Positions 1 to 63,999 of a stretch of 64,000 nt of DNA are shown piece by piece. Positions within the stretch are counted from its first letter, which is position 1; the number at the start of each line of letters is the position of its first letter. Source of the stretch: an uncultured virus (IMG/VR IMGVR_UViG_3300021185_004515) (Duplodnaviria > Heunggongvirae > Uroviricota > Caudoviricetes); the IMG/VR virus record IMGVR_UViG_3300021185_004515, one strand, 5' to 3'. The translations under genes and the position numbers were made by a program. The notes under the pieces are model-generated. The model ran no database searches. It was not told the DNA's origin and saw nothing but the letters and a program-made list of their open reading frames with translations.

Positions 1-816
1 CATGCCGCCCTCATAACCCTCTTCTACAAACTGGTCAGTATAGGTTTCTACATCTTCATAACTATTGATAGGGTAATTTTCTACAAAACGAACCCGAGTG
101 CGTCTGGCCGCAGGAACTTGATTAAGAATACGAACCATCAAGCGATACCGATTAGCAAAAGTCATATCCAGATTGTTCAAATCTATCAAATCATAAACTC
201 GTAATTTCATAAATTCTGTGACTTGTATATCGCTTTCGGTGTAATTTTCTGGTTTTTTACGGACTATTCCGCTGGCTCTTTCAAATTCTACATCATCGGG
301 GTCAGCATATAATTCGCCGTCTAAAATAATGTTGCTGGGCAAATTAAGATTCAAAATATCGGCTCGGATGCCGCCCATTCCTGGGAAGAGTTTATTCCCT
401 CTGGACATTAGAACTACTTGTCCCGCCGTAGGCATAGAGGCCATACATCTAACGCCATCAAATTTTCTTTGGATAGCGGCGGGGAATTGGGTCCATCGTC
501 GCCCACCGTCAGCGAACTTTTTTGCCAACATGGGAAGCACCACAGTTTGATTTCGGGCTCCTGCCATAGAGACCACATATCCTTGGTCTATTTTCTTGAG
601 CCATTCTGAACGAGCATCTAACTCAGCCTGTTCTAAAACGGTGCGTCCTTGATTACCTGCGGATACAATGGTGGGGGCTCCTGTAATTATGGTTCCTCCT
701 ACTTGTCCGTAGCGTGTAGAGTGGGAATATGTGCCATCACCATTAGAGGTAACTGAGATAGTCCATTCTCGCAAATTATTGTTGGAATCGGTCTTGTATA
801 GGGTGTCATAAGGCAT
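1..816 (-). CDS. lig: ATP-dependent DNA ligase (partial, runs off window start; missing from ORF track)
   Basis: Manual translation from ATG 816: PMLAKKF, motif I QRKFDGVRC, SRGNK, motif III ILDGELY, IIIa RVYDL, motif IV GYEGGM; TATA 22 nt upstream. Confidence 0.93.
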   Translation of the reverse strand, partial: MPYDTLYKTDSNNNLREWTISVTSNGDGTYSHSTRYGQVGGTIITGAPTIVSAGNQGRTVLEQAELDARSEWLKKIDQGYVVSMAGARNQTVVLPMLAKKFADGGRRWTQFPAAIQRKFDGVRCMASMPTAGQVVLMSRGNKLFPGMGGIRADILNLNLPSNIILDGELYADPDDVEFERASGIVRKKPENYTESDIQVTEFMKLRVYDLIDLNNLDMTFANRYRLMVRILNQVPAARRTRVRFVENYPINSYEDVETYTDQFVEEGYEGGM

Positions 817-846
817 GGTTATCTCTCCGTGTTTCACCTATTTAAC

Positions 847-2119: not shown

Positions 2120-3139
2120 TTACGCCTTGCGACTAAACCACCATGCAGCACCAATCGCTAATGATGCGGCAATAACAGCGGCAGTTTGCTTGTTAAATCG
2201 GGATTCTGTGGAACCTTCTTCCATAGAGTCTACAAATGATTGAGCATCCATAGTCATTTCTGGGAAATCTTCTCGGTCATAGTAACCATCATAATCTTGT
2301 TCATCTACACGGGTCTGAAATTCTGCGATTGCATCAACCACATCTTCAGAAAAGTTGTAAGGGAAAGCAATTTCAAATTCTCCATTAGAGGATTCGGAAA
2401 TAACGACCACACCGTCTCGGATGTCATCATCCATCACATCAGTAAGATAGTTCTTGATTGGTTCATCAACAACGAACACCTCACGCCCATTAGAATCTTC
2501 AAAAACATTTTGCACAGATTCTGTGACTTCGGAAAATTCGGCTTCCATTTCTTGGTCTTTTAGACCTTCTTCCATCGGAATAGCGACTTCTTCAGGTGAG
2601 TTGGAGGTAATAGCCTTCTTGAGTCGGCTCAGAGCGGAACCACGCATATAGGTGTTAGCGGCTTCAGGAGTTCCATCATTTCCACGGCCATATTGAGATG
2701 CGTCATTTTCGGCACGACCAGCCCAGACATAATCATGGGCAGGAAGAGAAGGAGCAGCGTCAGTAGCGGAAACAATTTCTCCGCCTGTGTGTTGCCCAAT
2801 AATTCTGCCATCACCTACGGGGTCAGTAGATGGCTCAGGAACCAAAAGTTCTGCGCCCGAGTCTGCTGGTTCAGAGGCTTCAGCCGCAAAAGCCGAAGGA
2901 GTTGCTTCTTCAGCAGCATAAACTGGGAGAGTTTTGCCCAATTGTTCACAAATAGTAGCGGCATCTTGGGCTCCAATTAGACTCTGACATTTGTGTTCTT
3001 TGCCAGTTTCTGGGTTGTTGTAGTAACCAATAACTTGATAACGGCTGCCTCCACCCTTGGTTTTGGTAGCAATAATATCATGAACCTCACACATAACTTT
3101 CTTTTTGAGTCCTGTGGAGTAAATTTCTCTGCTGACCAT
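2120..3139 (-). CDS. Tail-anchored modular protein with Cren7-like N-terminal domain
   Basis: N-term VIGYYNNPETGKEHK; YAAE/FAAE/MEAE motifs; acidic linkers; C-terminal TM; TATA at 3162. Confidence 0.75.
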   Translation of the reverse strand: MVSREIYSTGLKKKVMCEVHDIIATKTKGGGSRYQVIGYYNNPETGKEHKCQSLIGAQDAATICEQLGKTLPVYAAEEATPSAFAAEASEPADSGAELLVPEPSTDPVGDGRIIGQHTGGEIVSATDAAPSLPAHDYVWAGRAENDASQYGRGNDGTPEAANTYMRGSALSRLKKAITSNSPEEVAIPMEEGLKDQEMEAEFSEVTESVQNVFEDSNGREVFVVDEPIKNYLTDVMDDDIRDGVVVISESSNGEFEIAFPYNFSEDVVDAIAEFQTRVDEQDYDGYYDREDFPEMTMDAQSFVDSMEEGSTESRFNKQTAAVIAASLAIGAAWWFSRKA

Positions 3140-3176
3140 ACTTACACTTCCGTATTCCGACTATTTAGGTGTTTGC

Positions 3177-3725
3177 TCAAAATCCAAATGTGTCACGCTG
3201 GAAGGACGCTCGTGTTCCCAAAACTTCTTGACCGAAGGCCGTAGAGTAAATTCCTGTGGTATTTGCATTAGGCGATGCTTCAGCATTTAGGAAAAAGGTA
3301 GTCATTCCTCCATTACTTTCTGCCCCAAATTTTTCTTGCATTTCTTCAGAGGATGTTTGTTCTTCGGCTTCCAAGGCTTCGGATTCCAAACGGTCCATTT
3401 CGGCTTCAGCAACTTCAATAACTTGTTCGTATTTTTCTTCATCAGAAGCGGCTTGTAGGCCACGGAATAATCCTCCAAGGCCAAAACCAAGAGGAAATAG
3501 CCCCATTAAAGAAAAAACCAGTGGACGATAATTGTATTCTCCGTCTACGGAAAGTAGTTCACCATTTTGAAACCACTTATCAAAGCCCCAAAGAGTCAAA
3601 GAACCCATTCCTAACAAGAGTGGAAAGCCCACCATTGAATCGCGTAATTGGTCCCTAATAGGTGTAGAGGTAACAACTTCTTCTTCGCCTTCAAAAATAT
3701 TGGAGCGGAGTTGAGCAAAGTCCAT
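3177..3725 (-). CDS. Two-TM membrane protein with acidic tail
   Basis: Two TM segments, FGAE and LNAE motifs; GAGGT SD and TATA at 3759. Confidence 0.75.
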   Translation of the reverse strand: MDFAQLRSNIFEGEEEVVTSTPIRDQLRDSMVGFPLLLGMGSLTLWGFDKWFQNGELLSVDGEYNYRPLVFSLMGLFPLGFGLGGLFRGLQAASDEEKYEQVIEVAEAEMDRLESEALEAEEQTSSEEMQEKFGAESNGGMTTFFLNAEASPNANTTGIYSTAFGQEVLGTRASFQRDTFGF

Positions 3726-3815
3726 AATTATACCTCATTATTACTTGGTGCGTTTTGTTATTTAAGTTTCTCGGTTACCAACCCTTTGATTCGTAAATCA
3801 AATTACTGAGAAACA

Positions 3816-4166
3816 TCAGTTTGCACCAACCGCAGCACCAGTGTAGTTCTGTCCGAAACTCGGTGTTGTGGCTGCCATACTCAAAGTATAGGCTGAAAGG
3901 TCAGGTCCGTAAGCGATTTTACCATAAGGTGTGGAATTGCTAAGGTTGTATGTTTGTCCAACCATTCGTCCTGCCATGATTCCTCGTTCAGTAGAAACTT
4001 TTTGAATCTCTCCATAGTTATTGACAATTTCTTGTCCTGTGTTTTCATTGATGAGAACTTCTGTTTCTGAATTGAAAGATTCTTTGGCTACACGAAATCC
4101 ATAATTTAATACCAGAGCAAGAACTCCTGCCCCAGCAATCACCATTATAGTTTCTTTAGGATTCAA
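3816..4166 (-). CDS. N-anchored membrane protein (start moved to TTG after GAGGTG SD)
   Basis: N-terminal TM, FNSE motif; the longer ORF-track start overlaps the upstream gene. Confidence 0.6.
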   Translation of the reverse strand: MNPKETIMVIAGAGVLALVLNYGFRVAKESFNSETEVLINENTGQEIVNNYGEIQKVSTERGIMAGRMVGQTYNLSNSTPYGKIAYGPDLSAYTLSMAATTPSFGQNYTGAAVGAN

Positions 4167-4176
4167 AAAATCCACC

Positions 4177-5244
4177 TCAGTTGTCGCCCAGAAGCATACC
4201 AAGAGCCGATGCAGCAATAACAGAGCCAGCAGATAGTAGCATGAATCCAAGTCCAATCTTAGCACCAGTTTCAACAGGCTTTGCCAGTTCAACTTGGTCA
4301 GCCCACATGATGTCATTTGGTGGAGAGGAAGCAGCACTCATTCCAGAATCGTCTTCCCACTGAACAATAGCGTTAGTGAGTGATTCAGCGTGGTGTGCAA
4401 CCTTAGCGTCACCGAGTCCACGGAAGCCCACAGGTTTCTGTGACTTAGCGTTGCTTCGGCGGTCTTGACGGAGAGAGCGTCCCACATCAACATTAGAAAT
4501 AAATTCACCCTTAGCGTTGCGAGCAACATAGCGTTGGTTACCGTTCAACTTGTATCGGTTACGCTTACCGTATTTCTGGGCTTCAAATGTTTCCGCAGCC
4601 TTGGTCTTACTGTAACCCTTTCGCATTTTCTGTCCCATTTTCTTGTTATATTGAGAAGAACTCATAGGTCCGTAGACTTGAGGAGAGTATCCAATACGAC
4701 CGTAGCCGTTGAATCCACCCATGTTGGTGTTAATGAAAACATGGAATTTGTTAGCGGAACCACTGCGTTCAGTTAAATAAACTGGGTCGCCTTGGAAACG
4801 AACACCTGGATTTGCCGAACGAATAGCAGCCTTAACAGCCTCAATATCTTGGCGGCCAGGTGGTAGTGATGCCATGGCTTCAAAGGTTTCAGCGTGTTTG
4901 TGGCCGTTAGCGTCACCCATACCACGCTTTCCTGCCTTAGCATAGCGAGTTGGTTTTGGTTCACGCTTGTCAGCAGCGAGACTGCGTCCCATGTCTACAT
5001 TGGAAATAAACTTTCCTTTGCTGTCACGAGCGACATATCGGTAATTACCATTTAGTTTGTATCGGTTTCGGGTTCCATATTCGGCATTTTTTTCCATAGT
5101 TTCACTTCCATAGGTTTCAGCATCCATGGTTTTAGTGCAAGAAGCACAGAAAATGGATTCAGCATTTAGGTCATGTGAATTACAACCTGCACAATGCTGG
5201 TGAGAATCAGATTCTGCACTCTTGCATCCACAGGTGTTACACAT
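4177..5244 (-). CDS. Modular nucleic-acid-binding polyprotein: Cys-rich peptides, two basic repeats, WGR domain, C-terminal TM
   Basis: Duplicated RYKLNGNxRYVARxxKGxFISNVDxGRSL unit; WGR-like SANKF...YGRIG...KKMGQKMRKGY; at least 8 AE/SE motifs at boundaries; TATA at 5267. Confidence 0.8.
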   Translation of the reverse strand: MCNTCGCKSAESDSHQHCAGCNSHDLNAESIFCASCTKTMDAETYGSETMEKNAEYGTRNRYKLNGNYRYVARDSKGKFISNVDMGRSLAADKREPKPTRYAKAGKRGMGDANGHKHAETFEAMASLPPGRQDIEAVKAAIRSANPGVRFQGDPVYLTERSGSANKFHVFINTNMGGFNGYGRIGYSPQVYGPMSSSQYNKKMGQKMRKGYSKTKAAETFEAQKYGKRNRYKLNGNQRYVARNAKGEFISNVDVGRSLRQDRRSNAKSQKPVGFRGLGDAKVAHHAESLTNAIVQWEDDSGMSAASSPPNDIMWADQVELAKPVETGAKIGLGFMLLSAGSVIAASALGMLLGDN

Positions 5245-5259
5245 AATAATAGTTAGGGC

Positions 5260-5278
5260 GTTTTGCTATTTAAGTTTT
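5260..5278 (-). promoter_or_regulatory. Archaeal promoter (AAAACTTAAATAGCAAAAC), leaderless
   Basis: Consensus TATA 22 nt upstream of ATG 5244. Confidence 0.85.
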
Positions 5279-5287
5279 GAGTAATGA

Positions 5288-6712
5288 TTACTGTCCCTCA
5301 GCCGCCCAATAATCTTGTCCCCACTTGTAATTGAGCAATAATTCTGTGACGAAAACGGCTCGTTTAGAACCAGTTATTTGGATAGGGTCGGCGTTCATCG
5401 TGGCTTCTAACAAACCGAGTTTAGCAGCCGCATACAATCCTTCCAATAGTTCTGGGTCGGCGGAAGAAACATGACTCTGAAGGGAAGTCACAAAACTTGA
5501 ATCTGTCAATCGCATAGGCAAGTCATCATCGTTAATCATAGAATTGATGAAGTCAATAGTTTGTTCAGGCGTGTAGGTTATACTTACTGAAATTTCTGGG
5601 ATGGCTTCAGGGTCAAGTTCCATAAAATCAGCGATGTCAATTTTCTCTACAAAGCCCTTGGTGAATTTGCCTGAACTATCTCGGTTCTGAATTCTCCAAG
5701 ATTTGGTTTCCGCAGAAAAATTCTGAGATAGTCTGTCATTAGTGACTTGAGCGACTCGTGACCAATCATCCATGGTATCAGGTTGAAGTTCCCGACTAAC
5801 CTTGGCTAATTCCAGTGCTGGAGCAAAGTCCTTATTCATTCCAGCGGTTCGTAGTTTCCTACTTCCCTTATCGTAAAAATTAAGGTTGTTAGCAACTACT
5901 GAGGCTCCGCCCACGACCTTCCCAAAAACATTACAGCCATAGTGCATGGTTCTTCCTAAGACGCTCCATCCATTTTTGCTGCAATTACGGTAAAAATTAT
6001 CTGCTTCAGCATTGAAGGATTCAGCCTTACAACAAATTGTTGCATCCGAACTATTATCATAAACACTATCGCATTCACCACATTGATATTCATTTACCAT
6101 TGTTCCCGCTTGTCTTCCTTTTGCAATTCTGTGGATAACATCAACAGCGAATGTTTCAGCATTCAAAGAAGTTCCGCTAAATCCGCCACATTTAGGGCAA
6201 GAACCATCTTCAGTTCCTTCCTTCCAAGCATCCCATTCATAATTACATTTATTACAATTCCAATTATCTTCTGCATTAAAATCTTCTTCTCTCTGTAAAT
6301 GCTCTATGGCTCGGTCAATTAAATTGTGTCGGGCGGATTGCTTATCAGGCCCTTCTCCATAACTGCTGATACGAGAGCGTCCATTGTTGGGTAATGCAAA
6401 CATTACATCTCCAAAGACAATGAATTCTCCATCTCGTTCCATAGTGTGTCCAATGTCGGTCATGATGACTTCGTAATCATTAGTGTTATCATAACCATAA
6501 TCATCGGGCCACGAAGGGCCAGATTCTCCTCTGGATTCAAAGGTTTTGCTTTCGCTGGCAAAAATTGGGTTGGCTTGAAGCCATTCATCAACAAACCATT
6601 TAGGAATCTCTATCTCCCCGTGGATAATATCTTCAAAATATTGGTCTACATCCAGAGGTTCAGAGGCCATATATTCTGCATAAGCATACCCTAATGATTT
6701 CATTCGTCCCAT
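5288..6712 (-). CDS. Modular AE-motif polyprotein with zinc ribbons
   Basis: CxxC pairs, RDSSGKF motif; FASE, FNAE, LNAE, FNAE, FSAE, WAAE; GAGGTGA SD. Confidence 0.75.
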   Translation of the reverse strand: MGRMKSLGYAYAEYMASEPLDVDQYFEDIIHGEIEIPKWFVDEWLQANPIFASESKTFESRGESGPSWPDDYGYDNTNDYEVIMTDIGHTMERDGEFIVFGDVMFALPNNGRSRISSYGEGPDKQSARHNLIDRAIEHLQREEDFNAEDNWNCNKCNYEWDAWKEGTEDGSCPKCGGFSGTSLNAETFAVDVIHRIAKGRQAGTMVNEYQCGECDSVYDNSSDATICCKAESFNAEADNFYRNCSKNGWSVLGRTMHYGCNVFGKVVGGASVVANNLNFYDKGSRKLRTAGMNKDFAPALELAKVSRELQPDTMDDWSRVAQVTNDRLSQNFSAETKSWRIQNRDSSGKFTKGFVEKIDIADFMELDPEAIPEISVSITYTPEQTIDFINSMINDDDLPMRLTDSSFVTSLQSHVSSADPELLEGLYAAAKLGLLEATMNADPIQITGSKRAVFVTELLLNYKWGQDYWAAEGQ

Positions 6713-11755: not shown

Positions 11756-12406
11756 TCACATTCCTTGAGCGGAAAGGAGTGAACGCTTATACCAGTCCAC
11801 ATTTCCTGGGTTGATGGAGATACCCATTTCCAACAACTTGTTGGCGATGAGTGCATCAGGTCCGTCGTAAAGTGTGTATTTGGTGAATGCGTAGTGGTCT
11901 GCACCAGTAGCCGCTCCCCAAGAACCTGCGTTGAAAGCAGTGTAAAGGATGTCCCAAACTTGTCCTGGCAACACATATACATCAGGGTATAGGTTGAAGG
12001 AAGGCTGGAAATCAAGGGAACGAGGGTAAGGGCTTGCGCTACCTGGGATACCTTGGTTTGCAACATTGTCAGGGTCAAGGAAGTAGTCCGTGGTGTTGAT
12101 ACGAACTTGCACATAGGCACGAGGACCGAGTGTTCCGTTTCCTGGGGCGAAATCACCGAGTTGTCCTCGGTAATCTGTTGAGACAGTAGCCGCTGTTGAA
12201 GTTGCTGGCAAAGTTGGTGTGCAAGCGATGTCTTCAATGACAACGAATTCTGTGGCGGTTGTTTCTGCTGGCTTGGTAATGTTGTTACCGAATCCACCGA
12301 TAAAGATAGATACTGCTCGTCCTGCTTGCGCTGCGACGAAGTTGTTTGCGGTTACACCATTTGGCCCGAGGCCGTTCCATTCATAAATTTGACTTCTCAT
12401 ACTCAT
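11756..12406 (-). CDS. Putative major capsid protein A (single jelly-roll-like)
   Basis: Paralogue of the neighbouring gene with long identical blocks; eight alternating-hydrophobic strands incl. LYPDVYVLPGQV; C-ending codon bias suggests high expression. Confidence 0.6.
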   Translation of the reverse strand: MSMRSQIYEWNGLGPNGVTANNFVAAQAGRAVSIFIGGFGNNITKPAETTATEFVVIEDIACTPTLPATSTAATVSTDYRGQLGDFAPGNGTLGPRAYVQVRINTTDYFLDPDNVANQGIPGSASPYPRSLDFQPSFNLYPDVYVLPGQVWDILYTAFNAGSWGAATGADHYAFTKYTLYDGPDALIANKLLEMGISINPGNVDWYKRSLLSAQGM

Positions 12407-12451
12407 AATAATCACTTTCCATAGTTAGTTTTCCTCAAAGGAATTCCGAAC

Positions 12452-13108
12452 TCAGACTCCTCCGTTAGTTGGGGCCATTGCAGCACGGGTTTGTTGCTCA
12501 ATGAGGGAACGCTTATACCAATCAACATTGTTTGGATTGATGGTGACACCAAGTTCCAAAAGTTTGTTTGCGATGAGTGCATCTGGGCCATCATAAAGAG
12601 TGTATTTCACGAAAGCAGCGACAACTTGAGTAGTTGTGCCGTTCATGGCTTCGTTGATGCTGTAAAGAATCTGGAAAACTTGACCAGGAAGAACATAAAC
12701 ATCTGGGTAGAGGTCAAAAGACTTCAAGAGGTTGTCCTTGGTGTAGGTCAAAACGGTTCCTGCAACTGCAACAGAGGAAGGAGAACCACGAGGGTAAGGA
12801 CTTGCAAGACCTGGGATACCACGCTGACGGGTAACATCTGGGTTCTGGAAGTAATCAGTGGTGTTGATTCGGATTTGGACTGAGCCACCGAGCCAAGGAG
12901 AACAAGCGATGTCCTCAATAACGATAAACTGCGTTGCAGTTGTTTCGGCTGGCTTAGTGATGTTATTACCGTATCCGCCGATAAAAATATCAATTTCTTG
13001 TTGGCTTGGAACGGTAACAGGGATGTCACTTGTTGTTCTTCGTAGGCTTGAAGTTTGACCCGTAGGTGCGAGGTTACTCCATTCATATACTTGGCTTCTC
13101 ATACTCAT
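12452..13108 (-). CDS. Putative major capsid protein B (single jelly-roll-like)
   Basis: Shares MSMRSQ, GNNITKPAETTAT, VIEDIAC, RINTTDYF, KYTLYDGPDALIANKLLE, NVDWYKRSL with gene A; TATA at 13165. Confidence 0.6.
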   Translation of the reverse strand: MSMRSQVYEWSNLAPTGQTSSLRRTTSDIPVTVPSQQEIDIFIGGYGNNITKPAETTATQFIVIEDIACSPWLGGSVQIRINTTDYFQNPDVTRQRGIPGLASPYPRGSPSSVAVAGTVLTYTKDNLLKSFDLYPDVYVLPGQVFQILYSINEAMNGTTTQVVAAFVKYTLYDGPDALIANKLLELGVTINPNNVDWYKRSLIEQQTRAAMAPTNGGV

Positions 13109-13162
13109 AATAATCACATTTTATTGCACAGTGTCTGTGTCTAATATTATATGGTATTTTTG

Positions 13163-15959: not shown

Positions 15960-15978
15960 GTTTTTGCTATTTAAGTTT
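15960..15978 (-). promoter_or_regulatory. Archaeal promoter (AAACTTAAATAGCAAAAAC)
   Basis: Consensus motif 23 nt upstream of ATG 15944. Confidence 0.85.
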
Positions 15979-32841: not shown

Positions 32842-34026
32842 TCAGTTATAATCTCCATCTGGGTGGGTTAATCGCACTAATGCGGCAAATGTCCCTGCTA
32901 ATGAAATCATTCCGTCTCCTCGGTCTGGAGCCAACATAACTGCTTTGAAGAATTGTCCCATATCGGGACCCGTATGAGGCCACACAGGTAATCCTGAAAT
33001 AACAACACTGCTGGGTCTTACGGCCATCGGGAGGTCTATTCCAGCGGCTTTTGAATAACCTACTTCGGCTTGCAACCTCATGGTTCCTGGGAAATAAGTC
33101 CATTCTCCTTTGGCAAGAGTTCCTCGGTAACTACCTGAATCGTAATCTTCTCCTCCGCCTGTGTTTCGCATGACTCCACCAAAATAAGGGATAATCTGGT
33201 CTTCTCTATTTTGTGAACCGACTCCCACATAAAAAACTGGGCCATAAGAACGCATATATTGGTCTAAGGGAACATTGTTTTCAAATTCTAAGGTTGCCCA
33301 ATGCTGACGATACCAATCGTAACAAGTATCACTAAAACAAATTGACACCGCCCTGTCTATCTTTACTCTATCTCCATCTTCAGTGGGAATTCCTCCTTTC
33401 ATACCATCACAAGCAATTTGACATCCTGATGAATGCAGGGCTTGTCCTGAAGGAACAAACGCTTGAGAATTACTTCCTAACAAAAATTCTAATGCGCCAT
33501 CATAGTCATTAGATGGTCCAGGCCAATCCACATGACCTACTTCATTAAAGGAGTAGAGGGCGAAATGAGATTTAGATGATTTACATTGAGCCACCACAAT
33601 TGCTGCTAAGGCACGAGCCAAATCACATTTCAAAAGTGTAGTTCCATTGTAAGTTCCTGCCACTTGATTCATTCCTTCGCTGCGGTCCATAATCAATTGC
33701 ACGAAAGTATTATAACTGGTATCTCCTGTGACGGCAGGAGACATAGCCGTAGCCTGTGCTTCTCCTGAGCCAATCGCAATAGCGGGATTTGGGCCTGTGG
33801 TAGATTCAATTAACTCTCCTTGAGATTGACCCATAACATAAACATTTTGTCCCTCTGGTGCTTCTGAACCCTTGAATGTCAAAACCTTGACGAAATCGGC
33901 CATACCTGCAAAAAAGGCAGCCGCAGGATTTTGGAATTCTACCATTTGAGGGTCATTGGTAGGAATCTGCGACTGTCTGGTAAATACATAGGGGTTATCG
34001 TCTGCTCCGCCTGTTTGTCCACTCAT
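32842..34026 (-). CDS. vWA-domain-like protein
   Basis: LIMDRSEGM degenerate MIDAS, ICFSD strand; paralogue of next gene. Confidence 0.7.
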   Translation of the reverse strand: MSGQTGGADDNPYVFTRQSQIPTNDPQMVEFQNPAAAFFAGMADFVKVLTFKGSEAPEGQNVYVMGQSQGELIESTTGPNPAIAIGSGEAQATAMSPAVTGDTSYNTFVQLIMDRSEGMNQVAGTYNGTTLLKCDLARALAAIVVAQCKSSKSHFALYSFNEVGHVDWPGPSNDYDGALEFLLGSNSQAFVPSGQALHSSGCQIACDGMKGGIPTEDGDRVKIDRAVSICFSDTCYDWYRQHWATLEFENNVPLDQYMRSYGPVFYVGVGSQNREDQIIPYFGGVMRNTGGGEDYDSGSYRGTLAKGEWTYFPGTMRLQAEVGYSKAAGIDLPMAVRPSSVVISGLPVWPHTGPDMGQFFKAVMLAPDRGDGMISLAGTFAALVRLTHPDGDYN

Positions 34027-34035
34027 AATATCACC

Positions 34036-35304
34036 TTACTCATAATCTCCGTCAGGATGAGTCATGCAAACTAAATCTGCAAATGTTCCTGCTAATGTTA
34101 TCATCCCGTCTGCTCGGTCAGGAGCCAACATAACACATTTGAAAAATGATTCCATATCTACTCCTTCGTGCGGCCAAGTTGCTGGCAGTTCATTACCATC
34201 GTCGTGGCTTCTCTCCGTGGTAATGTTAATTCCATTAGCCCGACTCCAACAAACTTCGGCAGCCAATCGCATAGTTCCTGGGAAATAAACCCACTCTCCT
34301 GCTCTTCCCATAGGGTCATAGGGCAAACGGTGTGCCTCTTGCTCATAGGCGTGGGGGCGATAATCATTATACAATGAGTCTTGTTCCTGAGTCCGACCTC
34401 CACCTGTGTTTCGCATGACCCCTCCAAAATAAGGAATAATCTGGTCTTCACGACCTCCGCCCGAAGGAGATACTCCGACATAATAAACAGGACCTTTAGT
34501 TCGCATATACTGGTCTAATGGAACATTGTTGTTAAATTCTAACGAATCCCAATGTTGCATCGGCCAGTTATAACATTGATTAGAAAATACAATTGAAACG
34601 GCACGGTCTATATTCAAACTATTGCCTTCTAAATCAAATCCTGAGAACATATAATCGCAAGCAGTTTGACAACCAGAACCTGGTTCGTGTCCTGCTGCCA
34701 CCTCACCGTTCAGGCTTCGGACCTCGGGAACAAACGCTTGAGAATTACTTCCTAACAAAAATTCTATGGCTCCGTCGTAATCTTGAGAAGGACCAGGCCA
34801 ATCCACATATCCTGTCCAACTATATGAGAACAGACAAAAATGTGATTTAGTAGCACGGCACTGTTCTACGGCAATAGCGGCTAATGCTCTTCCTAAATCC
34901 CAGAGAAGTAGGGTTTGTCCGTTGAAAGTTCCTGCCACATTGTCCATTCCTACGCTTCGGTCCATGATAATTGATACCAAAGTATTGTATTCTTCAGTTT
35001 GAGTCGGTATAATCATAGACGAACGAGCCTGTGCTTCACGAGCCGCAATAGCCAAACCTGGATTCGGTCCCGCAGTATCTTCTTTGAACTCTCCTTGTGA
35101 TTGACCCATAATATATGTGGAGGTGCCTGTTTGTGTCATCGCAGGTCGGGTTTTCATAACTCGCACAAAATCTGCCATTCCGTCAAAGAATGCAGCCGCA
35201 GGATTTTTAAAGTTTATCATTTCTGGGTCGCCCATATTCCGACGGCCAATCTGTTCGGTAAAAACATATGGGTTATCGTCTGTGCCGCCTGTTTGTCCAC
35301 TCAT
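34036..35304 (-). CDS. vWA-domain-like protein
   Basis: IIMDRSVGM degenerate MIDAS; long identical blocks with the 32842 gene. Confidence 0.7.
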   Translation of the reverse strand: MSGQTGGTDDNPYVFTEQIGRRNMGDPEMINFKNPAAAFFDGMADFVRVMKTRPAMTQTGTSTYIMGQSQGEFKEDTAGPNPGLAIAAREAQARSSMIIPTQTEEYNTLVSIIMDRSVGMDNVAGTFNGQTLLLWDLGRALAAIAVEQCRATKSHFCLFSYSWTGYVDWPGPSQDYDGAIEFLLGSNSQAFVPEVRSLNGEVAAGHEPGSGCQTACDYMFSGFDLEGNSLNIDRAVSIVFSNQCYNWPMQHWDSLEFNNNVPLDQYMRTKGPVYYVGVSPSGGGREDQIIPYFGGVMRNTGGGRTQEQDSLYNDYRPHAYEQEAHRLPYDPMGRAGEWVYFPGTMRLAAEVCWSRANGINITTERSHDDGNELPATWPHEGVDMESFFKCVMLAPDRADGMITLAGTFADLVCMTHPDGDYE

Positions 35305-35313
35305 CTTATCGCC

Positions 35314-38300
35314 TCAGTATCGGTAATCTCCACCTTCAACAAGTTCGGCTCTGAATCTTAATGCCCACTTCCACCATCCCGCAGGAATGGTAACTTCTCT
35401 GGTTCGGCCACCTTCTTCGGCAACTGAATCAGTTCCTGGTTCGGTTTCCCATGCCACAGCACCCTCAAAATATCCTTGTGATAATCCACTGGTTCGGGAA
35501 GGCAACAGTTGTAAATCTCCAGCAGGTGATATTAGATTGTCAAGAGATTGTAATTGACCTGTGTTGATATAGTGCTGAATAGCAGCATATCCTGGATAAT
35601 ATCTTCCTGTTTGCAGGGCTTCTAACAGTGTGCTTGCTTCTCCCCGAGCAGCAGCGGCCTGTCCTACTTGAGAAATGGCTTCACATTCTCGGCAAAGATA
35701 ATAGCGAACTGCGATTCCTTGTTGTGGGACTTCTGATGTTTCCATCAATTGAATACGGTGCGAACCCTGAATAATAGCACTGTTGCCTCCAGGCGCACGA
35801 GCAGACAAGATAGCCGCTAAACCACCATTGGCTCTTCCTGTCCAATCTTGAACTAATTGATTGGCAGGGATTTCTCTATCATTGATGTGACAGTAATCAT
35901 ATCCTGTTTCACTTTGAATCGCATAATTAGAAGGAATATTGTTGTCCATCATGTATTGCAACGAATCATTCATTGGAACTCCTGTTAATCCAGGTCCAGA
36001 CCAATTTACGCTTCCTGATTCCAGAACTCCTGTGACATCGGGGAATTGGGTCCATCGTGGAGTTTTATTGCCTCGTTGGTCGGTGACCATAGGAGAAATA
36101 TCAATCCATCGGCCCTGAATGAGAGAGAAGTATGCTTCCGCAGACTTGCCTTCAGTAACGGCAAAGGTATAATTGTTAGGGGCTCCTGCACAACAACTCA
36201 TAGACCCTTCTGCTCCCACAGCGGTCAGAGGATTTTTAACTATTTCGGCTACTCTTGGTGCGGTAAAAATGGTAATTTGTGTGGGTCTGCCTGTGGCTGC
36301 ATCTAAATTTCCTGCGGCTCGGACAATGGGATTAGAAATAGTAATGGCTCCTCCCGTAATTGCTACGGCTTGAGTTCCCACAGGTATTCCATCTGCATTA
36401 AGGTAATCTCCAACAGCAATTTTTTCGGGATTGCTAACTACCAGTGTGGTATCTCCTTCATTGTATTCGGCTGTGATTAGAGTTTGATTTTCGTTGAGGG
36501 ATGCGGCAGAAGGAACAGGTGCAGCGGTGGTGCTGTTGTTAATAATCCATTCTGCTTCGTATGTTAGTGGGCCTTGTCTTTCGTTAGGGCAAGTAAATCC
36601 TTCAATATTCCTATCTGAAACGGGTTGTGGTGGTTGCGGTGTGAACTCAGTTGGGATGACATCGCCCATATAGACTTGCGGGAGTTCCAAACGGAGATTG
36701 TATCTTTCCTGCGAGTCTACTTGCGATTTCAACACTAAACTCCATTGAGGTCGGTCCGCAAATGCTTGTGCTATCATGGCTCCGTTAGGCAAAATACCCA
36801 CTGAATCTTCTGCGGTAAGTGGCTGCCGATTCATAATGGTGTATGGCATAGGAGGCATAATAAAATTCTGTGGGTGAGGTTCAATAAATTTAGCGTCACC
36901 ATTAACTCCACAAGTGGGGCAATAATCCATAGCCTGTCCTCGGCCATCAATCAAGGGTTGGTAATTTGTCACTTCTCGGGCATTTGAACCAGGATATTGC
37001 CATCCAACATTTTTATGGTCTGGATTTTTACAAACTGCCATTACTGACCGAACGAAAGCATACCGACACATAGAGAGTGCGAATGATGCAGGGAAGGCAT
37101 TCTTTTGACGAAGTGTTTGCAATTGCTTAATTGCCTCATGTGCTGCGGTCGCATCCCTAACAGCAACAGTGCCAAACTCTGCATAAACCGCTCGGATGGC
37201 ATCATCTTGGACAGCACCACGAGCATAAGTAGCGTAATCAGAAGACCGACCACTTCCTGATTCCATGCCTCTAAAACCGCCTGTTCTTCCTAATTGACGA
37301 GTAGTGCGAGCCATGCCCTCTTCCTGTGCCGCTTGTATTCTGTTGTAGATTGTGAGTTGTTCATCTGATAATGCTTTGATTTTGAGCATAGGTTCAAAAA
37401 CTCCTCCACAGAGACAACCAAAAGTTCCATCCAATCCTGCATAACTTCGCTGAACATCTCCTATGTTTTTACATAATCCTCCGTGTTGGTCGCCCTGATA
37501 CTGAGATTGACTAAAGTAGGTTTTACGAGGATAAATATCAAAGTTAGTTTCAAAGTTCTCATTTACGGGAGCAAACCTTTCAATTCCGCAAGAATTACAG
37601 ACATAGGCATTAGGTCGTGAGTTATTTCGGTCTTTAGTAGAGGTATATCCCAATTGAAGATAAGGAATATATTTCAAACATTCGGCTTGAGTGGTGAGGT
37701 AGGTGTTTTCAGGAGGCAAACCTTGATAATAAATACGATAAAATGCTTGGGAAGAGGCAGAATCCTCTACAAACTTGGAGTTATTGATAATACCTACCAT
37801 GTTAGGAGGCATTTCCGAATTTGCTCCTCTAATCGGTGCGCCATTGACGAACTGTGATGTTGTTTCTGTGTTGCTATCACGATGTCTCTGTCCTGTGGTC
37901 CAATAATCTCGGAGTGGGTGGTTGGTATTAACCTTGAAAATAGCATAACTTTCTGTTCCACAACCTCCGACACTTTTAGGTGTGCTGGAATTACAATAGG
38001 GGCTGGGACATCTGCCCGAGCCTCTCCAAGTGGTTCCACATCCTCCATTTTCTGGGTCGCAAGTTTTAACTTGATTGCATTTAACTCGTCCCACAACTAC
38101 TTGAAATCTTTTTCCACGGTATGTTGGGTCGTGTAGATTTCGTTGCCATCGCTCTAATCCGACTGACGAGCCCCAATTAGCAGGGTTGTTGTAAAGTCCA
38201 AAATCTGTGAACTCCCACCACCACAAGAAATCTCTTCGGCCACAACCTCGTGTTTTAGAAGCATCAGGTCCGCTGGCACCACCACCAGTTCTTCCTGCCT

Positions 38301-38580
38301 CTCCAAATGCTACGGGATTACAAACAAAAATACCTGAATCTCCTGCATTACTGGTCTGAACATGGGTATTTCCTGTGAGGAATCGTCGCATCATCATTAC
38401 AATTCGGGGTGCATTAGACTTGAAATTGCTAACTATTTCCGACATCTGTGTATTTTCGGTTGCCAAACGATTAGAAGAGTTCCTTCGGGAACCAGGATTT
38501 TTAAGATAAATTAAATCATAAATATCTCGTAAAATTCGGACACCGACTGGTCTGTTAATTGGATTATCTCTGTATCCCAT
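35314..38580 (-). CDS. Large multi-CxxC hypothetical protein
   Basis: 1088-aa ORF with several zinc-ribbon-like Cys pairs. Confidence 0.8.
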   Translation of the reverse strand: MGYRDNPINRPVGVRILRDIYDLIYLKNPGSRRNSSNRLATENTQMSEIVSNFKSNAPRIVMMMRRFLTGNTHVQTSNAGDSGIFVCNPVAFGEAGRTGGGASGPDASKTRGCGRRDFLWWWEFTDFGLYNNPANWGSSVGLERWQRNLHDPTYRGKRFQVVVGRVKCNQVKTCDPENGGCGTTWRGSGRCPSPYCNSSTPKSVGGCGTESYAIFKVNTNHPLRDYWTTGQRHRDSNTETTSQFVNGAPIRGANSEMPPNMVGIINNSKFVEDSASSQAFYRIYYQGLPPENTYLTTQAECLKYIPYLQLGYTSTKDRNNSRPNAYVCNSCGIERFAPVNENFETNFDIYPRKTYFSQSQYQGDQHGGLCKNIGDVQRSYAGLDGTFGCLCGGVFEPMLKIKALSDEQLTIYNRIQAAQEEGMARTTRQLGRTGGFRGMESGSGRSSDYATYARGAVQDDAIRAVYAEFGTVAVRDATAAHEAIKQLQTLRQKNAFPASFALSMCRYAFVRSVMAVCKNPDHKNVGWQYPGSNAREVTNYQPLIDGRGQAMDYCPTCGVNGDAKFIEPHPQNFIMPPMPYTIMNRQPLTAEDSVGILPNGAMIAQAFADRPQWSLVLKSQVDSQERYNLRLELPQVYMGDVIPTEFTPQPPQPVSDRNIEGFTCPNERQGPLTYEAEWIINNSTTAAPVPSAASLNENQTLITAEYNEGDTTLVVSNPEKIAVGDYLNADGIPVGTQAVAITGGAITISNPIVRAAGNLDAATGRPTQITIFTAPRVAEIVKNPLTAVGAEGSMSCCAGAPNNYTFAVTEGKSAEAYFSLIQGRWIDISPMVTDQRGNKTPRWTQFPDVTGVLESGSVNWSGPGLTGVPMNDSLQYMMDNNIPSNYAIQSETGYDYCHINDREIPANQLVQDWTGRANGGLAAILSARAPGGNSAIIQGSHRIQLMETSEVPQQGIAVRYYLCRECEAISQVGQAAAARGEASTLLEALQTGRYYPGYAAIQHYINTGQLQSLDNLISPAGDLQLLPSRTSGLSQGYFEGAVAWETEPGTDSVAEEGGRTREVTIPAGWWKWALRFRAELVEGGDYRY

Positions 38581-38584
38581 AATA

Positions 38585-39898
38585 TCACCGTGCCAAATCC
38601 TCGTTTATGCCTACTCCGCCAGCCTCAAGTGTGGAGGCATGAAGTGTGTAACTAACATCTTGTAACCACTGGTAAGCCGCTTCGTCACCTTTCCTTCCAG
38701 CATATCCTTCTGGACGGGTGGAATAGTTAGCCGCCCATTCCATCACCAATAAAAATCTAACTTCAAAACCATTGCGTTGGTTTGCCTCGTCCATCAACCC
38801 ACGATAATTAAACCAATAGCCATAGGTTTGTTTAGCGGGAAGTCCTGTGTCGGGACATATTTCTCTACAATATCTGGCAGGAATCCACTTTCCACCTATT
38901 CGGTAAGCCATAATTGGTTCAAATCCATCAAAACTGGTGCGATTATCATAGGTCATTGCGGCTTCCACAATTTGAATTCCTGGGGTGAAAGTTCCTTCTA
39001 TCTCAGTAGGTGTAGAGCAGATTTCACACACACCTGCGGTGGTTTGGAATCCTTGATATTGCTTACAGGAGTCGCAATATTGGCTGGTAATTCGGCTGGC
39101 TACTTCTACGGAGAGCCAGTTATTTGGGAATGGTTGTCCTGTATCTGGATTGTCGTTTTGAATGCACCAACTAACAGGAGGGTAAATCTGAGGTCCTCGG
39201 CCATAACCCATCAATTGTTGAAAAAGTGGGGTCTCCGCAGTAGCGATAGTAGCATTTCCTGACTCTCCAGGATTGAAATCTCCTTGAATTAGTCCTGTTG
39301 ATGCAGGAGGTATGTAGCGATTGTCCTCCACAGGTTGTCCATAAGAATTTTGTCCATTCTGTAAAACTCGTGCTAATGCTTGTCTTCCTGCTTCATCTGA
39401 GTAAGGGGTTCCGCAGATACGGAAAAAACTGTCGGCAAAATGTCCATAACTCAAAGTTTTTATCATCTCTCTTCCAAATGCCGTATCTTCAATAAAATTG
39501 TTGCCTCGGCTGACATTGAAATTGACGATAATATCTGAAATCACATTGCTCCAATCAAATTGTTCGTGAGCATCCACAGGAAGGTCTCTGACTTCGGCTT
39601 TCCAATCTGAAACTCGGCCTGGGTGAACGGTAATGTGTCCTATCTCGTGCGCTACTGTGAAAGCAACTCCCGCCGCAATATATTCGCTGGGGAATCCATG
39701 ATAATTCTGGGGTAGTGTCCATGAAACATAGTTCTGACCTAATGAAATCATTTTCATATCCGTAGCAGCACCATGCTGGTCGCTTCTTTTAATATCTACG
39801 GGCGTGTTGGTAGTTCCTGTCAAAGCCCGAAGGTTGGTGAGCAACTCTTGAACATTTTCCCCCAAATGGTAATCTCCATCTCGGAATACTTCGTCCAT
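38585..39898 (-). CDS. HExxH zinc metallopeptidase-like protein (DUF2201 N-terminal type)
   Basis: VAHEIGH followed by WSNVISDIIVN; next to MoxR AAA and vWA genes; TATA at 39921. Confidence 0.75.
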   Translation of the reverse strand: MDEVFRDGDYHLGENVQELLTNLRALTGTTNTPVDIKRSDQHGAATDMKMISLGQNYVSWTLPQNYHGFPSEYIAAGVAFTVAHEIGHITVHPGRVSDWKAEVRDLPVDAHEQFDWSNVISDIIVNFNVSRGNNFIEDTAFGREMIKTLSYGHFADSFFRICGTPYSDEAGRQALARVLQNGQNSYGQPVEDNRYIPPASTGLIQGDFNPGESGNATIATAETPLFQQLMGYGRGPQIYPPVSWCIQNDNPDTGQPFPNNWLSVEVASRITSQYCDSCKQYQGFQTTAGVCEICSTPTEIEGTFTPGIQIVEAAMTYDNRTSFDGFEPIMAYRIGGKWIPARYCREICPDTGLPAKQTYGYWFNYRGLMDEANQRNGFEVRFLLVMEWAANYSTRPEGYAGRKGDEAAYQWLQDVSYTLHASTLEAGGVGINEDLAR

Positions 39899-39935
39899 GA
39901 ATATAATTGGGTCTTGCTGCTATTTAAAAGTTGTC

Positions 39936-44225: not shown

Positions 44226-44227
44226 AA

Positions 44228-51800: not shown

Positions 51801-51944
51801 CTAATCGTTTTCGCTATTTAAGTTTTGCGAAACAAACCTGGTGATTACAGGATTACGGATGGCAATAAACCACCAAACAAAATAGAGGCTTGCTAATGAT
51901 AATGTGGTTAGCCAAGCCAAAATAAACCAAATAATTAGTTCCAA
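51801..51944 (-). CDS. 47-aa single-TM protein (not in ORF track)
   Basis: TTG start after GGAGTGA; ELIIWFILAWLTTLSLASLYFVWWFIAIR; directly downstream of the ArsA/GET3 gene. Confidence 0.55.
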   Translation of the reverse strand: MELIIWFILAWLTTLSLASLYFVWWFIAIRNPVITRFVSQNLNSEND

Positions 51945-53122
51945 CTTAGTTTCACTCCTGCGGAGACTTTACGACGAGTGGGCTTTCCTGCGTCGGCGGG
52001 AAGTGGGACTTGATAATGAGGCGAACTGCCACCCATGTTAAAGTCCTCCCAACGATACAAAGATTCTTGCTCATTGATTTTCCACTTGGCTGAGTCCAAA
52101 AATGGGACTGAGATGGTGACTGACTTATCACCTGTTATCAATGATTTTTTGGGAGCAAAAGAGATTCCTTTTGAATTCCAGAGAATTTTAGCGTAATCAA
52201 CCAACTTGGCACCACGAGGTTCGTATGGCAAACGAGAAACGCCTACTAATCGGATGTTGTGAGAGGCACAGATTTCTTGATATTTGATAAGATAAGGTTG
52301 CTGAATGTCGTATTCGCACTTGATTAACTGAGTCGCAGGATTGGGATTATCTCCTTCAGCGGCTTCCCAAGTAGTGGGTCCGAAATTAGGGATGATATTA
52401 TTTACCACTATGTTGTGAACCTTAATTTTCTGAGACTCTAAAAATCGGATAGTTCGGTAGCATTCTTGAAGTCCTGCTTCGGAGGCAATAGATACTAAAT
52501 TAACACTGACCCACTCGCTACGAAGTAAGGCTTTCAGACGGTCTATTTTATCACAAACCTCTTCCAATAAATTGGCTAATTTTTCTGCGGTTTTGTCACG
52601 GCGGAACAAAACGCCTTTGAAATTCTCAATCTTGGCTTTCATACGCAAAATCTTGAGCAAAAAGGTTTTAATATAGTCGGGGGCTGTTAAAGCACGAAGC
52701 GTGTGTCCTGTGGGGGCTGTATCAAATACCACTACATCATAGTCACAAGATTGGGTTAATCGCAGAATCTCTTCTAAAGCAAAGTATTCATCCATTCCTG
52801 GAAATCCTGCCATGTCAGAAAACAGTTCGGAATCCAAACCAGGCAACATTTTAGAGAATGTTTCAGCGGTGGCTTGATTCAAAGTGTCCGTAAAATTAAG
52901 AGCCATGCGTTCTGCATCTATGTTTTTAGCCCAAAAATTAGGAGCAATTTGAACTTCAGTCGGACCGACGGCTACTCCTAATGTGTCATCAGTGCTATGG
53001 GCTGGGTCAGAAGATACCAGAATTGTTCGGTAGCCTTGAGAGGCTAAATGTTGGGCTGATGCAGCGGAAACGGTAGACTTACCGACACCACCCTTGCCTG
53101 TATAAAGTAACAGTTGAGCCAT
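51935..53122 (-). CDS. ArsA/GET3 (TRC40)-family ATPase
   Basis: Deviant Walker A GKGGVGKST, SSDPAHS, FPGMDE, DTAPTGHT; single ATPase domain; no ars genes nearby. Confidence 0.92.
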   Translation of the reverse strand: MAQLLLYTGKGGVGKSTVSAASAQHLASQGYRTILVSSDPAHSTDDTLGVAVGPTEVQIAPNFWAKNIDAERMALNFTDTLNQATAETFSKMLPGLDSELFSDMAGFPGMDEYFALEEILRLTQSCDYDVVVFDTAPTGHTLRALTAPDYIKTFLLKILRMKAKIENFKGVLFRRDKTAEKLANLLEEVCDKIDRLKALLRSEWVSVNLVSIASEAGLQECYRTIRFLESQKIKVHNIVVNNIIPNFGPTTWEAAEGDNPNPATQLIKCEYDIQQPYLIKYQEICASHNIRLVGVSRLPYEPRGAKLVDYAKILWNSKGISFAPKKSLITGDKSVTISVPFLDSAKWKINEQESLYRWEDFNMGGSSPHYQVPLPADAGKPTRRKVSAGVKLSWN

Positions 53123-56494: not shown

Positions 56495-56977
56495 TTAACT
56501 GGTGGCTGTCCATGATATTCTCGCACCTGTGGGAAAATTCTCAATTGGCTCTACCAAAGCATTAGCGATAAAATAGGTAATATCCCAATCAGTTCCTGGT
56601 GGAATTTCTATTTGCCAACCTGTGGGGTCCATCGGTTGGTCGCTCAAACTGATGGAATAAGGTGCGGCAGTTCCTGATAATCCGACACCTGGGCGGCCAT
56701 CTGGGTCCAAGAAATATGATGTGGTGCCGACAACAAAATTGACATAACCTCCTGGGACCCAATCGTTTCCAATCCCAAATAATCCTGGGGTGGAGCCAAA
56801 GTATTGTAACACGACGAATTCAGTGGCTTTGGTGCGGAGACGGTTCTTGATAGTGGCAGTTCCGATTTTAGAATAAAAGACTGATTGTGGGGTTTTCTCT
56901 AAATCTTCTAATTGTTTAGGAGGGATGTTTCCTAAATCTGCGACTTCCCACTGAAACCCTTGTCTGCGGATAGCCAT
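56495..56977 (-). CDS. Distant paralogue of the capsid protein beta-barrel (minor capsid/penton candidate)
   Basis: TKATEFVV, TTSYFLDPD, GLSGTAAPY, PPGTDWDITY align with capsid protein A. Confidence 0.7.
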   Translation of the reverse strand: MAIRRQGFQWEVADLGNIPPKQLEDLEKTPQSVFYSKIGTATIKNRLRTKATEFVVLQYFGSTPGLFGIGNDWVPGGYVNFVVGTTSYFLDPDGRPGVGLSGTAAPYSISLSDQPMDPTGWQIEIPPGTDWDITYFIANALVEPIENFPTGARISWTATS

Positions 56978-63447: not shown

Positions 63448-63999
63448 TCAGACTTCTAAGGCATCAAGAATGCCGTCATCGTCGTCATCTGCGTCCAGAT
63501 TATCTGCGACACCATCGTTGTCATGGTCAAATTGACCAGTCATATCGTTGCCGTCGTTGTTTTCAAACCAATCGGAAAGTCCGTCGTTGTCATCGTCCAA
63601 ATCAGAAGCATCCCAAATACCATCGTTGTCGTGGTCGTAACGATAAGCGGAGAATGCACCACCGACTTCATCAACATCAAGAATGTCGTCGTTGTCGTCG
63701 TCAGTATCTACACCATCATTAAGTCCATCATTGTCGTGGTCACGAGAAGCATCAGAGCCGTTGTCGTAAATGTCCTTGTAGTTGTCAATTCCGTCGTTGT
63801 CAATATCTAAATCAACATTATCGGGGATGTTGTCGTTGTCGTGGTCGTAAATGTCGGTATTGTCATTACCGTCATTGACTTCTTCGTTGTCGTTTAGACC
63901 GTCGCCATCGTCATCATCGTCTTCTGAATCAACAATTCCATCGTTGTCGTGGTCCATCGGTGAATCATCCATAGAATCTGGGATTCCATCGTTGTCGTC
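63448..63999 (-). CDS. Thrombospondin type-3-like DxDxDG Ca-binding repeat protein (partial, starts beyond window)
   Basis: Repeated DHDNDG...D.DDD.DG units; frame open to the window edge. Confidence 0.85.
   Translation of the reverse strand, partial: DDNDGIPDSMDDSPMDHDNDGIVDSEDDDDDGDGLNDNEEVNDGNDNTDIYDHDNDNIPDNVDLDIDNDGIDNYKDIYDNGSDASRDHDNDGLNDGVDTDDDNDDILDVDEVGGAFSAYRYDHDNDGIWDASDLDDDNDGLSDWFENNDGNDMTGQFDHDNDGVADNLDADDDDDGILDALEV

Follow-up and report, generated by a model that had tools for sequence, protein, structure and literature searches.

The gene at positions 4177..5244 (minus strand) of the window, by which we mean the whole 64,000-nucleotide stretch analysed from the uncultured virus record IMGVR_UViG_3300021185_004515, encodes an AE-jointed cassette protein of 355 amino acids (P0001) with a C-terminal membrane anchor, as delineated from sequence and homologues. 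P0001 contains seven Ala-Glu (AE) dipeptides, compared with 2.0 expected from composition, at residues 10, 28, 42, 54, 118, 217 and 286, and segment borders are drawn here as if the chain were cut between A and E. From the N terminus, and all on the minus strand, it comprises four short peptides each closing with an AE, three of them with Cys pairs (aa 1-54; 5083..5244); basic repeat 1 (aa 55-118; 4891..5082), with 16 Lys/Arg residues and a pI of 10.3; a WGR-fold module assigned from a model and homologues, in which Tyr-Gly-Arg replaces Trp-Gly-Arg (aa 119-217; 4594..4890); basic repeat 2 (aa 218-286; 4387..4593), again with 16 Lys/Arg residues and with a pI of 10.8; an acidic spacer (aa 287-329; 4258..4386); and a hydrophobic helix of tail-anchor type recognized from sequence and a hydropathy scan (approximately aa 330-353; 4186..4257). 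The hypothetical segments 1-10, 11-28 and 29-42 are the Cys peptides (nt 5244-5119) and segment 43-54 follows; these peptides are partly lost or changed in relatives, and one related locus (L057) is without aa 14-52. The middle three pieces have pI values of 10.0-10.8, the lowest being that of the WGR-fold module, and the remainder is acidic or neutral, with a pI of 4.1 for the spacer and hydrophobic tail together (aa 287-355). The spacer, which occurs in other cassette orders in relatives, has an AD at aa 315 that may be a variant joint.

A sequence-only reading had proposed the AE-delimited order of Cys peptides, repeat, WGR-like domain, second repeat and transmembrane segment, and this is borne out by the ORF translation and the AE positions, together with the three motifs that it named (NKF at nt 4752, YGRIG at 4704, and K..KGY as KMRKGY at 4629). 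The WGR-like domain that it placed at 4613-4782 exists, but the fold begins at about nt 4875 with an extra helix and strand, and the second repeat does precede the transmembrane segment, but with an acidic segment of 40 residues between them that is mobile among homologues. Joints doubling as short DNA repeats, and any protease, were absent from that reading.

An archaeal TATA-like box, CTTAAATA, lies just upstream of the P0001 start codon (5267..5274, minus strand). This word has 19 matches in the window versus 2.9 expected, 18 of them on the minus strand (for example 5267-5274 and 15968-15975), and in the related genome G002 a related word, TTAAGTA, stands 31-33 bases upstream of most start codons, which suggests leaderless transcripts. 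As a mark of late genes CTTAAATA was rejected, as it precedes genes of all kinds and is a genome-wide promoter word. Read-level evidence consists of assembled contigs: one from an RNA library (X15) spans 2751-5255, the whole ORF included, which is not proof of transcription, and joints or loose ends at 4593, 4912 and 5082 stem from related strains. Runs matching the stretch were marine, estuarine and viral-fraction, from 16 studies, and 14 of 20 rows were flagged as possible sources.

Four IMG/VR records, here called the relatives, share paired 220-aa genes, and two of them, 160-166 kb long, have inverted terminal repeats at their ends. The pair in the window (paralogous genes of about 220 aa; 11756..13117, minus strand) encodes putative jelly-roll capsid proteins, which we treat as a lead only; their nearest Pfam-bearing clusters are PM2 P2 (0.76-0.77), and searches of PDB sequences and of GenBank phages returned no match. 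Capsid-like paralogues also lie at 56495-56977 and at the start of 53617-56457, and relatives carry at least five full copies per genome. A jelly-roll capsid with an internal membrane is plausible for these viruses. G002, of which 145 of 166 ORFs were scanned, encodes TBP, TFIIB, PCNA, both PolD subunits, an MCM-like ATPase and a primase, as well as HerA-like and Get3-type ATPases; because it carries TBP, TFIIB, PCNA, PolD and allied genes, the host appears to be archaeal-type. Neither an HK97-fold capsid protein nor a terminase was found by Pfam among these 145 ORFs, and the HerA-like ATPase, which has one PHROG 'terminase large subunit' label, is placed with HerA by Pfam and NCBIfam. A Get3/TRC40/ArsA-family ATPase is encoded at 51935..53122 (minus strand; TIGR00345, 181 bits, cut-off 135) and in all four relatives, and many ORFs of these viruses end in a hydrophobic helix by hydropathy scan; this ATPase is a candidate inserter of tail-anchored proteins. 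Literature searches, by titles and abstract openings, yielded no description of this virus group. At the edge of the window, an Asp-rich repeat protein (63448-63999, minus strand) has a G002 homologue that matches bacterial TSP3 repeats.

The WGR-fold module and the basic repeats

In a check set beforehand, an AlphaFold2 model of the central module (pLDDT 92.4, alignment of 44 sequences) and structure searches confirmed a WGR fold. The five top VIA-align structural matches among 48,161 chains were all WGR domains (Z 6.8-8.2), namely 2ra8 from Bacteroides (Z 8.2, rmsd 1.7, 66 aligned), PARP3 (Z 8.0) and PARP1 (Z 7.5, 7.5 and 6.8), and the first unrelated structure in the ranking had Z 6.3. The top two Foldseek rows were also WGR domains (E 0.017 and 0.056), with no row reaching E 0.001, and the model contains the antiparallel sheet and C-terminal helix of the PF05406 type. 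A Pfam scan of the whole of P0001 gave no WGR match at E<=0.1, and the excised module scored 11.9 bits (E 0.25) against PF05406; because this is below the gathering score of 22 bits, we class the module as WGR-fold and not as a threshold member of PF05406. The profile recognizes 6 of 13 aligned members of the module family (best E 5.7e-7), and the syntenic G002 protein scores 24.3 bits, above the gathering score. The module shares with PF05406 domains (PARP1-3, 2ra8) the fold, the G-R-I-G hairpin and the final K-G-Y, but it has an extra N-terminal helix and Tyr in place of Trp in most copies (Tyr-Gly-Arg in P0001; Trp in 4 of 68 distinct contexts, mostly Tyr instead), and, unlike PARP-type WGR domains, the viral copy is a cassette without enzyme fusion. 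PARP WGR domains bind DNA breaks, which is established according to PDB structure titles, and by analogy we infer that the module here may bind nucleic acid. In the same window, an ATP-dependent DNA ligase (1-837, minus strand) has a weak N-terminal WGR match (Pfam E 0.042); its length is 388 aa in close relatives and 650-705 aa in other relatives.

The basic repeats are 58% identical to each other as protein and 72% identical over 104 nt as DNA (repeat family D1). Their likeness to a small stand-alone bacterial protein, pointed out in the sequence-only reading, is real: among 1.84 billion representatives searched there are small proteins made of little beyond the repeat, one cluster being a 68-aa hypothetical protein of Hymenobacter, and 110 stretches in species genomes, of which 80 were kept, encode relatives, including some in Caulobacteraceae, Acidobacteriota and a xanthomonad. 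The ends of the free-standing proteins (63-75 aa), also a check set beforehand, match the AE sites to within a few residues: the conserved core of the Hymenobacter protein runs from 16 residues past the Met to 10 before the stop, and in P0001 the core anchors lie 14 and 20 residues past an AE and 7 before one. The repeat had no match in Pfam, NCBIfam, PHROGs or PDB sequences, and in the ESM Atlas it matched unnamed bacterial clusters only (0.91). Neighbours of the bacterial repeat genes (50 of 76 listed ORFs, 17 of 80 loci) showed no conservation across genera and gave no clue to function; a Ku gene near one repeat gene (L137) is anecdotal. A related motif had also been noticed in the neighbouring AE-jointed ORF (5288..6712, minus strand; 474 aa), which does carry the word RDSSGKF (nt 5683-5663), but the repeat profile misses this ORF and the overlap consists of the seven-residue word R-D-x-x-G-K-F. 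The short word R-D-x-x-G-R/K-F, which we take to resemble a motif of phage head proteins, recurs in unrelated cassettes, at 5663-5683 in the window and at five related loci (L015, L024, L032, L039 and L040).

Related viruses gain, lose and reorder modules at the AE tag

P0001 consists of independent modules that meet at a (F/Y/M/L)-x-A-E tag, and it is exactly at this tag that related viruses gain, lose and reorder modules. Similarity breakpoints were located in those of the proteins P0001-P0242 that have at least 150 aa, and 517 of the 691 lay at most 3 aa from an AE, compared with a mean of 82 and a maximum of 101 in 200 random draws; breakpoints were the ends of local alignments (>=70% identity, >=30 columns) more than 20 residues from both termini, with duplicates dropped, and the alignments typically keep the AE on either side of the breakpoint. 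Counts anchored on the modules, for which the widths searched were set after viewing the data and domains with an anchor motif were used, agree. AE stands on the N side of the WGR module in 52 of 74 distinct contexts (13 by chance) and on its C side in 41 of 60 (13 by chance; 14 further contexts have stop codons), and it stands on the N side of the repeat in 64 of 82 contexts (23 by chance; 10 further have start codons). On the C side of the repeat the count is only 25 of 48; in many of the 22 contexts without AE the repeat continues directly into the membrane anchor. AE was found inside the repeat core in 0 of 79 cases and inside the WGR core in 10 of 107. Homologue boundaries therefore coincide with AE sites, as a check set beforehand had asked. 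Entire modules of the P0001 gene are gained or lost between two AEs at two related loci (L057 and L059), and comparison with relatives shows that exchange of cassettes at AE gives the neighbouring ORF 5288-6712 a length of 423 to 779 aa among close relatives. A homologue of that ORF is split over three frames at L055:8005-9965, possibly by sequencing errors. As a weak test, AE enrichment in tail-anchored ORFs (1.36-1.98) showed no clear difference from that in other ORFs (1.31-1.48).

The wider joint consensus is E-[ST]-[FYMKL]-[GSND]-A-E-[ST]-F-[EG]-A, and in its long form the tag doubles as a direct repeat of 17-18 nt in DNA. The WGR module is bracketed by such a repeat, its left (4876..4893) and right (4579..4596) 18-nt joints on the minus strand both encoding AETFEA and agreeing at 16 of 18 bases (DNA repeat family D10). 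Joint codons are biased: of 613 de-duplicated joints, 543 (89%) write their Glu as GAA, versus 1785 of 2294 Glu codons elsewhere (78%), and in long joints (n=51) GCT, GAA and ACC make up 69%, 98% and 73% versus backgrounds of 35%, 78% and 25%. The 18-nt repeat and the biased codons fit module swapping by short-homology recombination, which could by itself account for the codon bias, and recombination between short repeats very probably would be the way in which modules are swapped.

An alternative interpretation is that the joints are nothing but recombination micro-homologies that happen to code for a tolerable linker, P0001 being an uncut, membrane-tethered, multivalent DNA binder that as a whole ties the genome to the viral or host membrane. 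The near-identical 17-18-nt joints with their biased codons, the fall of breakpoints on shared AEs and one subfamily in which repeat and membrane anchor are joined with no AE between them are all consistent with this, but we consider it unlikely. Wobble positions vary at the joints, which use all four Ala codons and Ser from both codon families; Ala-to-Ser changes are seen at orthologous joints; some ORFs stop a few residues after an AE, and some bear short leaders that end in F-G-A before D, S or Q; and a tyrosine recombinase was not found in any of the four relatives, whereas the control matched 14 of 14. Moreover, a single-copy gene, that for a JAB/JAMM-fold protein, retains the motif: in 100 of 120 homologues a F/Y/M/L-x-[AS]-[ED] site lies between catalytic domain and C terminus (directly ahead of the membrane helix in the 42 sequences listed). 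Invariant AEs are also kept in three other core genes without visible cassette exchange. Because the motif persists even where no modules are exchanged, the tag peptide is under selection. The joints are thus both a DNA repeat and a conserved peptide motif, and the case for P0001 as a proteolytic precursor, which we prefer, is well argued from the sequences. A 1332-aa chain (P0126/P0259) carries the same WGR module with R-x-N-P/G/S joints instead of AE, which suggests a sister lineage with another tag.

Candidate proteases

Relatives and window offer two candidate proteases, a JAB/JAMM-fold protein and an HExxH zincin. The window itself does not contain the JAB gene, and we deduce that this virus has one from the relatives, all four of which encode it; 328 homologues were found. 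Canonical JAB/JAMM metal ligands follow the pattern Glu...His-x-His...Ser-x-x-Asp, and the spacing from HxH to Ser is usually 7. The candidate has this ligand pattern, with Glu34, His83, His85 and Ser100/101 invariant in 84 of 84 sequences and Asp103 present in at least 90%, and its H85-to-S100 spacing is 14 residues. Its predicted model has the MPN fold, and structural matches were JAB/MPN throughout (Foldseek E 4e-4 to 7e-4), including Pyrococcus JAMM1, at a middling Z of 8.1 (rmsd 3.4, 122 aligned), and Cap3 (Z 7.7); in Pfam it matches DUF4329 weakly. In fold and metal ligands the candidate of the relatives thus resembles archaeal JAMM1 and CBASS Cap3, but it has a longer insert between HxH and SxxD, a membrane anchor and no ubiquitin-like partner that we could see, and the role in virion maturation proposed here is described for no JAB protease in the literature titles and abstract openings searched. 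It bears a membrane helix like its proposed substrates, plus its own AE-type site; in the protein at L044:10001-10804 and its homologues, tags often stand on both sides of the helix, F-x-S-E before it and F-G-A-E after it. JAB enzymes prefer small residues, and because of this preference and the F-G-A leaders a cut between A and E is favoured. A predicted complex of the JAB domain with Zn and a 32-residue AE segment scored 0.02, which is uninformative either way. Cap3, itself a JAB, cleaves a linear fusion sequence-specifically at an ordinary peptide bond (10.1101/2022.03.31.486616), and JAB folds are also described as including clades thought to be non-peptidase, such as RadC (PMC5512222). 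The viral JAB might instead strip ubiquitin-like tags in the host, a possible anti-conjugation role.

The zincin-like ORF (38585..39898, minus strand), recognized from its motif and synteny, lies in a MoxR/vWA-like block (32842-46579, minus strand) that also encodes two vWA-like paralogues (by sequence reading), a 1088-aa Cys-rich protein, a 1429-aa AAA protein and a 783-aa protein. It underlies a second alternative, that the tags are cut by the zincin or by an unrecognized viral or host protease, possibly after Glu as T4-like and jumbo-phage head proteases do, the JAB having a separate role. The zincin is present in the window and in three of the four relatives, and zincin-like peptidases have been proposed as processors of phage polyvalent proteins (PMC5512222). 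A cut after Glu is allowed because the joint Glu is conserved as well as the Ala and because the head protease gp245 of jumbo phage SPN3US cuts after A-x-E (PMC10052503). We nevertheless regard this alternative as improbable because the whole block is missing from the syntenic place in G004, which may be incomplete, and at L075, both of which have AE chains, G004 also having the JAB; because the JAB bears its own conserved site; and because no other protease stands out. Of the prohead proteases of the T4/SPN3US type, Peptidase_S78 was found in none of the four relatives with a working control, and the S77 search was uninformative, matching neither the relatives nor the control; no further protease family appeared among the 145 of 166 G002 ORFs scanned.

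Proposed processing and comparison with known systems

We therefore favour a reading in which a viral enzyme probably cuts the tags, the enzyme most likely coming from a protease class with no known part in virus-particle maturation. The C-terminal helix would hold the chain on the viral membrane, possibly after insertion by the viral Get3-type ATPase, a step that we consider fairly likely. There is a good chance that a viral protease cuts the tags, presumably between Ala and Glu, which would release three basic proteins of 64-99 aa, and if cutting occurs the conserved membrane-anchored JAB/JAMM-fold protein is the likelier cutter. A slight preference goes to the last step, in which the freed proteins would bind the packaged linear genome as accessory cargo, charge neutralization falling to the repeats and the binding of ends or nicks to the WGR module. 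Taken as a whole, a tail-anchored precursor cut at its tags by the JAB during maturation, with freed basic modules binding the linear genome, is a reading on which we are evenly divided. Rather below that, and tentatively, we propose that these viruses represent an abundant, apparently undescribed lineage of membrane-containing archaeal viruses with genomes of about 160 kb that mature by membrane-anchored JAB cutting at F-x-A/E.

More doubtful is the interpretation, put forward in the sequence-only reading, that the products are the genome-condensing core proteins. The basic modules and the WGR fold on which it was built are there, but the claim is weakened: the repeat is present in two of the four relatives and was not found in G003 or G004, the WGR module is present in three and was not found in G004 (these records may be incomplete), and a repeat-anchor fusion occurs without AE. 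Because the modules are patchy in relatives and the repeat is sometimes left fused to the anchor, they look accessory. This patchiness also suits a third alternative, in which the tags are docking labels for the capsid interior or membrane and the modules are post-entry cargo that does not condense DNA but might, for instance, protect the termini of the linear genome or compete with sensors of DNA breaks in the host. Other cassettes indeed look like diverse cargo, with a GNAT-like and a DUF5872-like region in other G002 chain cassettes and many unrelated modules elsewhere, cassette content varies among near-identical strains, and two relatives have inverted terminal repeats. Docking, however, needs neither a tag on both sides of a module nor the absence of tags at natural termini, and it is compatible with cleavage and not exclusive of it, and we rate it as very unlikely in place of cleavage.

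Cleavage of a precursor, the reading we continue with, has parallels in other viruses. The maturation proteases of adenoviruses, poxviruses and African swine fever virus (ASFV) are Ulp1-like, adenain and poxvirus I7L being further systems of the ASFV type. Processing as proposed here resembles that of ASFV pp220 and of T4-type heads but appears to depart from both in the site or the enzyme that defines them. In ASFV, the polyproteins pp220 and pp62 are processed by the protease pS273R (PMC10308890). The likeness lies in a membrane-anchored precursor, a short repeated site, core proteins as product and a proposed viral cutter derived from a peptidase for ubiquitin-like proteins. However, ASFV sites are Gly-Gly-X, whereas boundaries here fall on (F/Y/M/L)-x-A-E and not on Gly-Gly-X; its anchor is an N-myristoyl group, whereas that of P0001 is a predicted C-terminal hydrophobic helix; and its protease belongs to clan CE, of which no member (PF00770, PF02902) was matched in the four relatives, with records possibly incomplete and the PF00770 control below cut-off, the candidate here being a JAB metalloprotease. 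Unlike in ASFV, modules are shuffled between genes and strains, and the host is archaeal-type. T4 head processing involves internal proteins and the protease gp21. With T4 and SPN3US these viruses share a short Ala/Glu motif in many proteins, a protease, here a candidate, with its own site and small basic cargo that would be freed, but cuts in those phages remove propeptides, whereas the tags here part many cargo modules and membrane anchors. Polyvalent proteins, as presented in PMC5512222, likewise join unrelated domains in a single, variable polypeptide for which processing into units has been proposed; compared with that account, the chain here has no internal peptidase (P0001 contains no zincin-like peptidase domain and no HExxH), a fixed short joint at every boundary and a membrane anchor. 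The main text of PMC5512222 has 0 occurrences of WGR.

If the proposed processing is true, JAB/JAMM enzymes would be added as a protease class of virion maturation, one that independently parallels the Ulp1-like enzymes, and archaeal viruses would have polyprotein processing with a plug-in cargo system. As the cut site would also be the recombination joint, a small gene placed between two joints would turn into particle cargo at once, examples here being the bacterial basic mini-protein and the WGR domain. The widespread bacterial basic protein of 60-75 aa, which is without a Pfam or NCBIfam family, would then gain a first functional context, as would a WGR fold that stands free and is not part of a PARP-type enzyme. 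Testing would be cheap, as it takes only a small soluble enzyme and a tag of six residues, and a JAB that recognizes a short linear sequence could be a useful tool protease. In another AE-jointed chain (L018:11894-14662, in G001), the first module is presumably similar to Cu/Zn superoxide dismutase.
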